From a virus (lineage: Duplodnaviria > Heunggongvirae > Uroviricota > Caudoviricetes): a DNA stretch of 64,000 nt. The first letter of the stretch is position 1. Every line of letters starts with the position of its first letter. The stretch is from IMG/VR virus record IMGVR_UViG_2740892439_000009; one strand, 5' to 3'. A program made the position numbers and the translations under genes. Positions 25,490 to 26,724 of this stretch are shown here, piece by piece. A model generated the notes under the pieces. That model did not search any database. It worked only from the letters and a program-made list of their open reading frames with translations, and had not been told where the DNA came from.

Positions 25490-25522
25490 AATGATTCCAT
25501 ACCTACTATGTATGGAATCATT
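25490..25522. repeat. lox-like site: perfect 13-bp inverted repeats AATGATTCCATAC / GTATGGAATCATT around a 7-bp spacer CTACTAT
   Basis: Seen directly; about 100 bp upstream of the tyrosine recombinase gene; half-site copies at 20848 and 21876. Confidence 0.6.
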
Positions 25523-25620
25523 ACTGAAAATGAGTTACTTTTACTCTTGATCCTATAAGAATCTATGCCTAATATACTGTTTACTTATACAGTGCATCGG
25601 CGTAACTCGGTGATTGTCAT

Positions 25621-26724
25621 ATGAAAAATAGCTTTGACAGAGCACGCGCTGCGGAGAACACCTCAAAAGAGGCGATAGAGTATCTCGAAAGAGCATCTCA
25701 AATGCAGGCCGTTATGATCTCGCAGGTTAGCAATGACATGAGATTCTCGGACGCATTCATGTTATTCACTCGCTTATCTCTGCTGATAACCAGACGTCGG
25801 CCAGAGATCGCTGTTCATTGTATTTTGATACATGTTTTGCCGCACATTGCCGATGTAAAAGTAAGTGACATTAATAGGTTCATGGTGAACCAACTGGTCA
25901 ACCCACTAATACTGGATGGCAAAATTGTTATGGGCCGCCGCGTTTTCTCTCTGATGAAGCAGTTCCTTAGCTGGTGCGCCTTCCAGGGGATGATAGACGT
26001 GTCACCGTTAAACGATATGTCACTTAACAAAGTTGCCGGTGGCGCAAAGCCCACACCTCGCGAGCGGAAGCTGACCGACGCAGAGGTATGGGTGTTCTGG
26101 AATATATGGGACTACTTCAATGTGTGCGCTGGTACAAAATGGGCGGCCAGGCTGTGTCTTGTATCAGCAAGACGACCTGATGAAGTACTGCGGGCTAAAA
26201 AAAGTGAGTTCAATCTTAAGCGTGGGGTTTGGAATCAAGGCAAAAGAAACAAGTCAGCACGTGAGCATTCGCTGCCTTTAAGCACATTAATGCGCACATG
26301 CATTGAAGAGTTGTTCGAATACGGTAAAGACAGCCAGTGGCTCGTGCCTTCGAATAAAAAAATCGGGAAAGACCTTCCTATGTCTAAAGTGGCAATAGCC
26401 CAGGCATTACGTCGTATTCTGGAACGACCAGAACTGATGGAGCTTGAGCCATTTACACCCCGAGATTTGCGCCGTACTGCGCGTAGTTACTTCCCAGCAT
26501 TAGGCATAAGCCAGGAGGTATCACGCAAAATCATGAACCACAGTCTTGAGGGGATAGATCGGGTCTACGACCGGCACGATTATATGGACGAGATGCGAGA
26601 CGCCTTAGAAAGTTTCTCGACGTACATCGCATCAATCGTAGAGCAACCGGATTTAGACGAAATTGACCACAAATTCAAGGGAGATCGTCTATCAACAGAG
26701 CTTATTCGTGTAAATTTTTCATAG
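25621..26724 (+). CDS. Tyrosine recombinase/integrase, short form without the N-terminal arm-binding domain
   Basis: Catalytic signature R(PDEVL)..HSLPLS..RDLRRTA..NHSLEG..VYDRHDY; an in-frame stop lies about 18 nt upstream of the ATG, so no N-terminal extension is possible. Confidence 0.8.
   Translation: MKNSFDRARAAENTSKEAIEYLERASQMQAVMISQVSNDMRFSDAFMLFTRLSLLITRRRPEIAVHCILIHVLPHIADVKVSDINRFMVNQLVNPLILDGKIVMGRRVFSLMKQFLSWCAFQGMIDVSPLNDMSLNKVAGGAKPTPRERKLTDAEVWVFWNIWDYFNVCAGTKWAARLCLVSARRPDEVLRAKKSEFNLKRGVWNQGKRNKSAREHSLPLSTLMRTCIEELFEYGKDSQWLVPSNKKIGKDLPMSKVAIAQALRRILERPELMELEPFTPRDLRRTARSYFPALGISQEVSRKIMNHSLEGIDRVYDRHDYMDEMRDALESFSTYIASIVEQPDLDEIDHKFKGDRLSTELIRVNFS

Follow-up and report, generated by a model that had tools for sequence, protein, structure and literature searches.

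Why does a phage-plasmid of the SSU5/pHCM2 type, a group of elements described by the field as typically devoid of integrases, carry a gene annotated as an "integrase", and what is the role of the palindrome located just upstream of it? Both are found in the window, a 64,000-nucleotide stretch of DNA belonging to such an element. Our analyses suggest, with a probability of about 0.72, that the palindrome and the adjacent recombinase constitute a self-contained, Cre/loxP-style multimer-resolution pair of a circular plasmid-prophage, whose most likely task would be to keep these plasmids as single units for stable inheritance.

The core site and its recombinase

The locus comprises the following features:

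25466..25489, no strand assigned: A/T-rich, loosely conserved element left of the core; family consensus ttAgATTTcat.AAAa..c.TCTt
25490..25502, + strand: left 13-bp arm, AATGATTCCATAC; predicted binding site of one recombinase monomer
25503..25509, + strand: 7-bp asymmetric spacer, CTACTAT; predicted strand-exchange (overlap) region, giving the site its polarity
25510..25522, + strand: right 13-bp arm, GTATGGAATCATT; perfect reverse complement of the left arm
25536..25541, + strand: −10-like hexamer TACTTT; family pattern TAnnnT, +14 to +19 from the right arm
25621..26724, + strand: tyrosine recombinase gene, 367 aa; core-binding and catalytic domains only
26719..27105, − strand: convergent HTH regulator gene, annotated as a putative repressor in the relative Cyrano

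The 33-bp site at 25490-25522 reads AATGATTCCATAC / CTACTAT / GTATGGAATCATT, a 13-7-13 geometry. This confirms the perfect 13-bp inverted repeat around a 7-bp asymmetric spacer reported by the first-pass annotation, which had placed it about 100 bp upstream of the recombinase gene; the measured distance between the end of the site and the ATG (25621) is 98 bp. No perfect 13-bp inverted repeat with a 5-9-bp spacer arose in 100 dinucleotide-preserving shuffles of the window, and arms of at least 11 bp occurred on average 0.09 times per shuffle in the same set. Two other readings of the palindrome were rejected. A terminator or RNA element is not compatible with an AT-rich stem, the absence of a T-tract and the absence of a matching Rfam family, and the glutaredoxin gene has its true terminator at 25413-25432. 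A protelomerase target was dropped on general grounds, the spacer being non-palindromic and the records circular.

Conservation in 88 dereplicated left flanks is limited to positions −24 to −1, with none detected further left, and the whole conserved footprint spans about 76 bp (25466-25541, −24 to +19 around the core) devoid of arm-type repeats. The left A/T-rich element, which shows no co-variation with arm class, is possibly an accessory or bending element, or else a degenerate third arm-like repeat (AGATTTCA compared to TGATTCCA in the arm), the weak arm-like sequence being located at −22 to −15 of the core. TnpI/IRS of Tn4430 and Flp/FRT with its third repeat are tyrosine-recombinase resolution sites in which further copies of the binding motif supplement an inverted-repeat core, and this arm-like sequence could be of the same type. 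Beyond the weak 24-bp element, we identified no topological filter or accessory architecture that would favor resolution. On the right side, the T, A and T of the TAnnnT pattern reach 1.2, 0.8 and 1.1 bits, respectively, in 52 distinct right flanks. The hexamer puts the −35 position over the right arm, which weakly suggests that the arm overlaps the promoter of the recombinase gene and that the gene may be autoregulated; because a strict sigma-70 consensus scan around the site found no promoter, this idea depends on the conserved TAnnnT by itself.

The encoded protein is a member of the tyrosine recombinase superfamily by its Pfam domain, its catalytic residues and its two-domain fold. It matches PF00589 (Phage_integrase) with a score of 39.9 bits, the cut-off being 27.1 (E = 4.7e-10), and PF22022 weakly, while a PHROG integrase profile is matched with an E-value of 8.5e-47, only from profile position 143 of 611. 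Residues R185, K211, R281-D-L-R284 and Y316, assigned from the motif pattern and not by structural superposition, are invariant in 18 clade members, among which the His-II position is occupied by the invariant Arg281 and His307 is replaced by Gln in two. The AF2 model (pLDDT 82) and Foldseek both support a helical core-binding domain followed by a catalytic domain. That the enzyme has no arm-binding N-terminal domain, as had been claimed from the sequence, is in agreement with the all-helical N-terminus of the model, with the extent of the PHROG match and with a Pfam scan of the protein, in which neither PF13356 nor any other arm domain was detected; PF13356 is present in outgroup homologues and absent from the clade. 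No Xis/RDF-like ORF was found in Pfam and PHROGs scans of the neighboring genes.

Foldseek returned probabilities of 1.00 for Tn1549 Int, lambda Int, XerA/H and IntI over about 300-325 columns. The best fold matches are the core plus catalytic domains of Tn1549 Int and lambda Int (E about 1e-6), the regulators MrpR and YopR appear at ranks 33-36, and Cre appears at rank 42 or lower (E 0.05). By sequence, the protein is closest to P4-type integrases (E 1e-37 to 1e-20), which carry the PF13356 arm-binding domain that is lacking here. A phmmer search against all PDB chains yielded no match at E ≤ 1, leaving similarity to Cre undetectable. The enzyme is Cre-like in architecture only: this part of the first-pass description stands, whereas sequence similarity is absent, the fold is nearest to the lambda and Tn1549 cores, and the spacer is 7 bp long instead of 8.

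Pairing of site and gene on plasmids

The same site-recombinase pairing was expected in relatives and was found across 166 related loci, where the gene is preceded by a single inverted repeat (arms of 13-15 bp, 7-bp spacer), even for recombinases as low as 45% identical. Exactly one such repeat is located upstream in 63 of 65 species-representative loci, the two exceptions being a gene fragment and a 27% outgroup, and the same type of repeat lies upstream of the gene in 101/101 viral-contig loci obtained by pattern search. Two arm classes track two protein clades. Class 1, AATGATTCCATAC, accompanies recombinases at least 57% identical to that of the window and is identical in all SSU5-group loci, while class 2, TGTGACTCCAGAC, with the left arm (T/A)(G/A)TGACTCCAGAC, accompanies recombinases 45-53% identical to it (group 2). 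Three species of Chimaeribacter possess one system of each class, on different contigs. The convergent HTH regulator gene is a neighbor of the recombinase gene in the SSU5 group only, being absent beside it in group-2 plasmids, and lies outside the universal module.

Spacer length is 7 bp in 166/166 loci, and spacer sequences are lineage-specific (CTACTAT in 39 loci, CTATTAA in 38, TTAATAG in 30 and TTGGTAG in 19, among others). Together with the two arm classes, these spacers would bar recombination between related replicons. The spacer occurs in both orientations relative to the gene, and PhiR41_1 and L113 have identical flanks and opposite spacers. Frequent flipping was rejected since none of the sites of 208 E. 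coli plasmids of this lineage is flipped, making the PhiR41_1 flip a rare event.

The pair is carried by about a thousand enterobacterial plasmids and phage-plasmids, including pMT1 of Yersinia pestis and pHCM2 of Salmonella Typhi. In PLSDB, the gene is present on 934 plasmids, always as one copy, 900 of them being non-mobilizable. The module is nearly universal in the SSU5 supergroup (pMT1, pHCM2, common Klebsiella and E. coli phage-plasmids, and large Pantoea/Erwinia/Rahnella plasmids), the gene is counted in each genus as often as a backbone marker, and its presence in the plasmid backbone is essentially universal. Of the close relatives examined, only SSU5, which was deposited with the annotation of a phage genome, lacks it. 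The module also occurs alone on non-phage plasmids of Pantoea, Erwinia and Rahnella, in which the group-2 neighbors are ordinary plasmid genes, and some group-2 loci are on 400-900-kb contigs. The complete 108-kb genome of Cyrano contains a single full site. One site per replicon and persistent carriage in the backbone are features expected of a multimer-resolution system.

A lone palindrome beside an integrase-like gene is also the expected look of an unintegrated attP core. The protein would then be a genuine integrase of the phage-plasmid or of a smaller element, with a chromosomal attB in some conditions or hosts. This interpretation would account for the kinship with P4-type enzymes, which are true integrases, for the top structural matches to lambda and Tn1549 integrases, for the very large contigs that bear some group-2 loci, and for the 7-bp spacer, as a 7-bp overlap is typical of lambda-type integrases. 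However, in 5,426 complete E. coli genomes the gene has 255 plasmid locations and no chromosomal one, and no integrated prophage form was found among them. Unlike lambda- and P4-type systems, the pair has neither arm-type sites nor Xis, the protein has no arm-binding domain, and the footprint covers merely about 76 bp. The sites are perfect palindromes and not hybrid attL/attR, and the ordinary plasmid genes surrounding the group-2 modules also argue against integration. We consider an attP core highly improbable. The proposal of a resolution or cyclisation system instead of a lambda-type integrase is strongly supported by the pairing and its two arm classes, the single site per replicon, the nearly universal backbone carriage, the 255 versus 0 distribution and the lack of an arm domain and of Xis, with catalysis and the role itself being predictions. 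Integrated copies of phage-plasmids have been described as rare and defective (PMC12977533).

Mosaic breaks and predicted function

The site marks a sharp break in relatedness between genomes, homology between the window and four close relatives beginning at 25475-25490. When the comparison is restricted to the 867 pairs of loci whose gene sides show 97% identity or more, the opposite sides have less than 60 bp in common in 505 pairs. The converse pattern is observed too, left flanks of 94-98% identity being combined with gene sides of 77-86% identity. An identical site and gene are found joined to at least six unrelated left flanks. Left of the site lies variable cargo composed of AbiGi-like genes, glutaredoxin, PhoH and highly expressed morons. 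For elements of the SSU5/pHCM2 type, insertions of resistance genes are reported beside the PhoH and DNA-ligase gene families (PMC9600943), and these families are located in the region left of the site. The distal cargo boundaries map at about 22156/22811, after tRNA genes, where no second or hybrid site was found.

These breaks invite the view that the site is a platform for cargo capture, comparable to integron attI or to dif hijacking, at which circular accessory DNA inserted on the left by the recombinase would have generated the variable defense and moron region. The unrelated left flanks abutting an identical site and gene, the nature of the cargo and the reported resistance-gene insertions near the PhoH/DNA-ligase families are what this scenario would produce. 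Integron cassettes are bounded by sites, whereas the distal boundaries here have neither a second nor a hybrid site; moreover, the spacer-side sequence of the dispersed half-sites described below, ATCTCAT, is unlike the core spacer, and group-2 plasmids have the same site without such cargo arrays. Capture thus seems unlikely. Under multimer resolution, recombination between sites carried by different co-resident plasmids would swap the region to the left, which would explain the hotspot for cargo exchange.

Based on the general behavior of tyrosine recombinases, one monomer would bind each 13-bp arm, and two directly repeated sites on a plasmid dimer would assemble into a tetrameric synapse. 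Tyr316 would cut where the 7-bp overlap begins and ends, and strands would then be exchanged twice in succession via a Holliday junction to restore monomers, allowing faithful partition of a low-copy plasmid. The module could instead circularise the linear, terminally redundant DNA injected by virions, which is the second role of Cre/loxP in P1. Besides the analogy with P1, this alternative finds an argument in the virions produced by Cyrano (PMC9928086). Yet SSU5, deposited and annotated as a phage, lacks the module, the Cyrano site lies about 41 kb from the terminase genes and not beside a likely pac site, and the same module resides on non-phage megaplasmids, so that circularisation as the main function appears quite unlikely.

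As a proposed multimer-resolution pair, the system resembles Cre/loxP of P1, as well as Dre/rox, Vika/vox, Nigri/nox and Panto/pox, in which a single recombinase of about 350 aa also lacks an arm-binding domain. In P1, two 13-bp inverted arms likewise flank an asymmetric spacer close to the gene on a plasmid-prophage, with dimer resolution as the presumed role. The lineage and the 13-7-13 geometry are nevertheless distinct from Cre/loxP, whose 34-bp target has an 8-bp spacer. Published lox-mining pipelines required homology to Cre and an 8-bp spacer, and would therefore miss this pair. XerCD/dif, cer and psi differ in that two paralogous host recombinases, XerC and XerD, act on an 11-6-11 site, in contrast with one plasmid-encoded recombinase and a symmetric 13-7-13 site here.

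We found no published description of the site, of either arm sequence or of the function of the gene in the relevant literature covered, which did not include the 1998 pMT1 paper. The site, together with a likely job for this "integrase", would fill a gap in the maintenance of low-copy replicons, and recombination at the site would offer a reason for the adjacent hotspot of defense genes, morons and resistance cargo. This lox-like system belongs to a different lineage, has a 7-bp spacer and exists naturally with two arm specificities and numerous heterospecific spacers, which makes it a possible source of recombinases that would be orthogonal to Cre, Dre and Vika.

Polar half-sites around the core

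Three extra exact copies of the 13-mer arm, ATGATTCCATACATC, are present in the window at 20848(+), 21874(+) and 31539(−). All point toward the core site and share the longer motif AATGATTCCATACATC[T/A]CAT:

20848..20867, + strand: half-site 1, AATGATTCCATACATCTCAT; overlaps the start codon of a 50-aa ORF (MIPYI...)
21874..21893, + strand: half-site 2, AATGATTCCATACATCACAT; non-coding, about 200 bp upstream of a tRNA cluster
31532..31551, − strand: half-site 3, inside dnaE, codons R84-C-M-E-S-L89

The first-pass annotation had listed half-site copies at 20848 and 21876 as potential pseudo-sites. Both copies are real, the second one starting at 21874, and the third had been missed; their casual nature is contradicted by their conservation. 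Half-site 1 is kept with identical codons in SSU5, pJN2-26 and Kluyvera, and half-site 2 retains its motif within flanks that are only about 50% conserved. Half-site 3, always 6.0-6.3 kb from the core site, is present in 39 of the 41 loci that reach this part of dnaE. Codons 85-88 of dnaE show zero synonymous variation in 31 distinct motif-carrying sequences, and codon 84 alternates between AGA and GGA, which preserves the GA of the motif. The half-sites are three conserved polar elements under DNA-level selection, one of them inside dnaE, an essential gene.

Several simple explanations of the half-sites were tested and discarded. An inversion switch could be read into 20848(+) and 31532(−), which together make a perfect inverted pair of 20 bp, but the 67 junctions in relatives (39 on the right, 28 on the left) are all collinear with the window, without a single inversion. 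Their reading as attL/attR scars is incompatible with spacer-side sequences that are inverted and not direct and with a copy inside dnaE; SSU5 keeps two copies without the module. They are not cargo boundaries, as neither 20848 nor 21874 coincides with a homology break, the breaks being located at the core site and near 22156/22811. The idea that half-sites co-vary with arm class was also dismissed: SSU5-like elements of Xenorhabdus and Morganella with group-2 arms have half-sites of neither type, making this test negative and not confirmatory. Half-sites are missing in group 2 as well, where the palindrome is kept.

The half-sites bear on the view that the protein is mainly a DNA-binding regulator built on a recombinase fold, similar to MrpR/YopR of SPbeta, with the palindrome and half-sites as operators and recombination absent or secondary. 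MrpR and YopR are indeed among the structural matches, the palindrome adjoins the conserved −10-like element of the gene, and the three extra arm copies under DNA-level selection could be dispersed operators. Conversely, the catalytic positions including Tyr316 are invariant across the clade, apart from H307, which is Gln in two members, 13-7-13 is the geometry of a crossover site, and mosaic breakpoints fall sharply at the palindrome, which is retained in group 2 and in the SSU5-like elements with group-2 arms while the half-sites are absent. A mainly regulatory protein is very unlikely in view of these observations.

The multimer-resolution pair in its plain form does not account for the polar half-sites, and the known systems offer partial parallels. 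P1 has no counterpart. The extra motifs of TnpI/IRS and Flp/FRT lie within about 100 bp of the core, whereas the well-conserved half-sites are 3-6 kb away, on both sides. Shufflon sfx sites combine a 7-bp spacer with a single conserved arm. Rci is likewise an arm-less tyrosine recombinase and sfx resembles the half-sites (13-bp arm followed by ATC...); inverted segments, however, are unseen here (0/67 junctions), each replicon has one full site, and inversion would split dnaE. XerCD/dif with KOPS/Ter also has oriented elements converging on a dimer-resolution site, an analogy only, given that there are just three polar copies here and that they are identical to the recombinase's own arm.

One rather unlikely idea is that, in the SSU5-type lineage, the arm sequence was recruited as a long-range polar element around the crossover site. 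If so, with recombinase monomers binding single arms, this would represent a new architecture for a site-specific recombination system. The half-sites could act as a fork or translocase trap bringing replication termination or synapsis to the site, as a plasmid-scale analogue of Ter/KOPS-dif, or the active recombinase could double as a dispersed-operator regulator, MrpR/YopR-like but catalytically competent. The polar half-sites, one of which is embedded in dnaE, are a cis element open to direct testing. An additional arm copy with two mismatches at 22851 is at chance level.

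The core site and the adjacent recombinase gene

The best-supported reading of our comparisons is that a palindromic site and the tyrosine recombinase gene downstream of it would form a dedicated multimer-resolution system. The elements concerned are:

25413-25432, intrinsic terminator of the glutaredoxin gene, preceding the core site
25490-25522, core site: AATGATTCCATAC, spacer CTACTAT, GTATGGAATCATT
25536-25541, TAnnnT element
25621-26724 (+), tyrosine recombinase gene, 367 aa

Re-reading the sequence confirmed the perfect 13-bp inverted repeat with an asymmetric 7-bp spacer described in the first-pass annotation, and the distance to the gene, put there at about 100 bp, is 98 bp from the end of the site to the ATG. 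No perfect 13-bp inverted repeat with a 5-9-bp spacer occurred in 100 dinucleotide-preserving shuffles of the window. Conservation among 88 dereplicated left flanks is restricted to positions −24 to −1 (A at −22, ATTT at −20 to −17, AAA at −12 to −10 and TCT at −4 to −2), an element containing an arm-like AGATTTCA that is the same whichever the arm class. Across 52 distinct right flanks the TAnnnT element is prominent at +14 to +19, where it would make the right arm coincide with a −35 position; this faintly hints that the recombinase gene could be autoregulated via a promoter overlapping this arm; a strict promoter scan found no promoter near the core site.

In Pfam the protein hits Phage_integrase (E 4.7e-10) and gives a weak match to the P4-type central domain PF22022. 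Proteins of ~365 aa that are at least 43% identical form a tight clade around it, and the next relatives beyond this clade are P4-type integrases (E 1e-37 to 1e-20). By motif rather than superposition, R185, K211, R284 and Y316 are assigned as invariant in an 18-member alignment; likewise by motif, the His-II position is occupied by an invariant Arg281, and His307 is replaced by Gln in two members. This invariance of catalytic residues contradicts a role as a pure regulator of the MrpR/YopR kind. The absence of an arm-binding N-terminal domain, proposed from the sequence earlier, is borne out: no such domain in the ORF was matched by Pfam, the AF2 model (pLDDT 82) shows an N-terminal half made of helices only, with no beta-sheet arm domain, and the arm-binding domain PF13356 is present in the P4-type outgroup relatives and absent from the clade. 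Among solved structures the best fold matches are Tn1549 Int and lambda Int, in their core-binding and catalytic parts (E ~1e-6), followed by XerA/H and IntI, with Cre at E 0.05; phmmer against PDB sequences returned nothing at E ≤ 1. Because folds, sequence relatives and the missing arm domain so indicate, we consider the enzyme Cre-like in architecture and descended from the lambda/P4 side of the family with loss of the arm domain. The earlier label "Cre-like" therefore holds for architecture and fails for descent, given the poor Cre fold match and the P4-type nearest relatives.

In the proposed mechanism, recombinase monomers would occupy both arms of the site, two sites on one plasmid dimer would synapse, Tyr316 would cut at the edges of the 7-bp overlap, and the strands would be exchanged one after the other to restore monomers, to the benefit of a low-copy plasmid also equipped with partition genes. 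Catalysis, the resolution role and autoregulation are what we infer from sequence comparison. Neither arm sequence was found in the relevant papers searched, nor did we find a paper giving this gene a site or function, the 1998 pMT1 paper lying outside this coverage. Two published lox-mining pipelines began from Cre homologues and required an 8-bp spacer, in contrast to the 7 bp found here, and Panto, from Pantoea, is of a different family, as its 41% identity to Cre shows. The pair described here would be a lox-style system for plasmid resolution that differs in descent and geometry and has, in one lineage, a putative long-range polar add-on.

Distribution and pairing of site and gene

Identity over the region is 97-98% with the Escherichia phages CMS-2020a, Cyrano (pLF82) and PhiR41_1, against ~77% with Salmonella phage SSU5. 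This identifies the window as a phage-plasmid of the SSU5/pHCM2 type: the phage is a siphovirus, and its prophage exists as a circular plasmid at low copy number, measured at 5.5 per cell for Cyrano (PMC9928086). By tblastn, the gene is present, nearly always in single copy, on 934 PLSDB plasmids (Klebsiella 348, Escherichia 230, Enterobacter 92, Pantoea 74, Yersinia 63, Salmonella 49, and others), including Y. pestis plasmids of ~100 kb and pHCM2 of S. Typhi CT18; 900 of the 934 are non-mobilizable. Genus counts for a backbone marker, the CobS-like ATPase (347, 227, 92, 63 and 49, plus Citrobacter 25), match those of the recombinase gene, which is thus essentially universal in the plasmid form of the SSU5-type supergroup. 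In line with this, tyrosine recombinases have been listed as persistent genes of the supergroup (PMC7969092).

Among 5,426 complete E. coli genomes, 252 carry the module, in 255 plasmid places and no chromosomal one, so that the integrated prophage form envisaged in the first-pass annotation as evidence to the contrary did not appear. A chromosomal integrase, which would insert the element into the host chromosome, is contradicted by these 0/255 places, by the absent arm domain and by the lack of an excisionase-like (Xis) gene among the neighbours of the recombinase. Phage-plasmids are described as typically without integrases, their chromosomal copies being rare and defective (PMC12977533). 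SSU5 is missing the entire block 22155-27570, with site, recombinase gene and HTH gene, and its junction retains no remnant. We also weighed cyclisation of virion DNA; against it, SSU5 copes without the module, and in Cyrano the terminase genes lie 41 kb from the site.

With the alignment of 18 clade members as query, we collected 65 loci from species-representative genomes. Exactly one 13-15-bp inverted repeat with a 7-bp spacer lies 80-290 bp upstream of the gene in 63 of them, the remaining two being an outgroup at 27% identity and a fragment of the gene. Scanning viral contigs for the pattern added 101 loci with one site apiece, so the pairing looked for in relatives is indeed present. In Cyrano, whose genome is complete (108,379 bp), there is likewise a single full site. 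The distance is fixed at ~100 bp in most viral-contig loci with the gene on the recovered stretch, and at ~46 bp in a subgroup ~60% identical to the window's recombinase. One contig (L129) has a full site at 13114-13142 with the usual Klebsiella-type right flank and, over the 995 bp to its right, no recombinase match with E up to 10; there, the sequence is masked or the gene is disrupted.

Two arm classes track the recombinase protein: AATGATTCCATAC with recombinases at least 57% identical to the window's, and (T/A)(G/A)TGACTCCAGAC with those 45-53% identical (Pantoea, Rahnella, Erwinia, Xenorhabdus, Photorhabdus, Ewingella, Hafnia and Morganella). A few arms fall between the two. In the second class, gene and site stand alone amid ordinary plasmid genes, namely GGDEF, H-NS, TonB receptor, MFS and LysR genes, on large Pantoea and Erwinia plasmids, some large contigs of this group being only putatively plasmid. 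An H-NS-family gene adjoins the module in Pantoea ananatis (L043:7097-7492) and Erwinia rhapontici (L062:4251-4655) plasmids. Three Chimaeribacter species carry both classes on separate contigs (C. coloradensis L010/L063, C. californicus L011/L055, C. arupi L012/L059), one system with AATGATTCCATAC arms and the other with TGTGACGCCAGAC / GTATGGAGTCACA arms, which looks like natural orthogonality within one cell.

Signs of exchange at the site

Spacers are 7 bp throughout, AT-rich and lineage-specific (CTACTAT 39, CTATTAA 38, TTAATAG 30, TTGGTAG 19, TTGTAAG 9, TTATTAG 9, and others), and both orientations relative to the gene are found. Locus L113 and PhiR41_1 have opposite spacers between identical flanks; such a flip relative to both flanks speaks against the kind of strongly asymmetric accessory architecture known from attP, cer or res. 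Flips within a lineage are rare (0/208 E. coli plasmids).

Homology between the window and four close gene-carrying relatives starts at 25475-25490, each having different cargo to the left, and at least six unrelated left flanks adjoin one identical site and gene. The left palindrome edge is also the start of many E. coli plasmid alignments. There are 867 pairs of loci whose gene sides agree at 97% identity or more over 1.3 kb; on the opposite side, 505 of these pairs have less than 60 bp in common abutting the site. Converse pairs exist (L109/L169, L098/L169), with left sides 94-98% identical over 1-2.8 kb and gene sides just 77-86%. The spacer goes along with the gene side. Two viral contigs (L074, L117) with a recombinase 98% identical to the window's have spacers TCTTTAG and TCCTTAG and differ from the window in the site-gene flank on the right as well as in the left flank, which suggests that exchange can also take place on the gene side.

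These breaks are the trace expected of repeated crossing-over between different replicons at the site, and they too contradict a pure regulator. Under the resolution reading, events between replicons at the same site would yield cargo mosaicism, and divergent spacers and arms would insulate co-resident relatives. Integron-like cargo capture was weighed as another source of variable cargo, and the distal sites it calls for were not found.

Within the variable region left of the site, 22814-24918 (-) is cargo found in neither Cyrano nor CMS-2020a, encoding an AbiGi-family protein (288 aa, Pfam E 2e-24) and then a 403-aa protein with no assigned function, probably a two-gene abortive-infection or defence pair. 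A tRNA cluster (Asn, Tyr, Thr, Ser; 22080-22636) is bracketed by two related 20-bp stem-loops, at 21693-21814 (CACAACGTTGAGGCC...) and 22639-22716 (CACAGCGTTGAGCGG...), just past which homology with relatives breaks.

Polar half-sites and other features of the window

In the lineage with ATTCCATAC arms, three extra single arms (half-sites, core ATGATTCCATACATC) share the 20-nt motif AATGATTCCATACATC[T/A]CAT:

20848 (+), half-site at the start codon of a 50-aa ORF
21874 (+), half-site in non-coding DNA upstream of the tRNA cluster
31539 (-), half-site inside dnaE

The first had been noted before; the second had been placed at 21876, and the third overlooked. In oriented loci, all 71 left-side copies are on the + strand and all 38 right-side copies on the - strand, so that every copy faces the core site, these copies representing mostly three homologous positions. 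PhiR41_1 has an independent copy within its own cargo with the same polarity. The whole Cyrano genome has no further copies at 0 or 1 mismatch.

In a test not conditioned on the motif, the dnaE half-site is kept in 39 of 41 loci reaching this region. Codons 85-88 (C-M-E-S) have no synonymous variation in 31 distinct motif-bearing sequences, against 2-6 codons in use at neighbouring conserved residues, and codon 84 is Arg AGA or Gly GGA, altering the protein with the motif intact. Such a pattern amounts to selection on the DNA itself. SSU5 keeps two half-sites though its recombinase gene is missing. SSU5-like elements of Xenorhabdus and Morganella, whose arms are of the second class, carry no half-site of either type, and none was found within 6 kb in the other second-class loci. 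The simplest guess is that half-sites bind single recombinase monomers; they may serve as a roadblock, in regulation, or in guiding or trapping something toward the site. We rejected them as cargo boundaries, since homology breaks fall elsewhere, and as an inversion pair, since none of 67 junctions compared in relatives is inverted.

At 43457-45210, a ~15-bp repeat (ACCGCTGACAGCATA) occurs at least 11 times, in two clusters ~1.1 kb apart, an array that looks like the iterons of the plasmid replication origin; the Cyrano replication region has an annotated RepA gene (60633-61688). Mostly intergenic near-palindromic motifs of the type GATAGGTAAGTnCTTACCTATC, ~22 bp each, probably serve a phage regulator as operator or promoter element. 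Immediately upstream of start codons, for instance that of the CobT-like gene (27668), stands TAAGAAAACAAnTTGTTT followed by AAAGGA, possibly a promoter/operator and ribosome-binding unit that these genes share.

Dispersed motifs in the window
GATAGGTAAGTnCTTACCTATC type: 14343, 17776, 21297, 24946, 37200, 40718, 42671, 46176, 50860, 60409, 61448, 62621 (repeat families D5, D11, D14-D17, I3, I7, I9)
TAAGAAAACAAnTTGTTT: 11095, 15122, 27630, 41862, 53299, 63514 (repeat families D6, D10, D12)

Two overlapping ORFs, 27668-29047 (CobT N domain) and 28918-29775 (CobT_C/VWA), take the place of one CobT-like gene because of a 1-nt gap relative to the single CDS of Cyrano (2108 vs 2109 nt, 99% identity), either a frameshift or a sequencing error in an acidic low-complexity stretch. 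Repeats of ~50-100 nt with 60-75% identity recur at 424-3311 with a spacing of 579-783 nt (738 nt for three spacings); this region corresponds to the tail-fibre gene of Cyrano, which would indicate a modular repeat structure of that protein.
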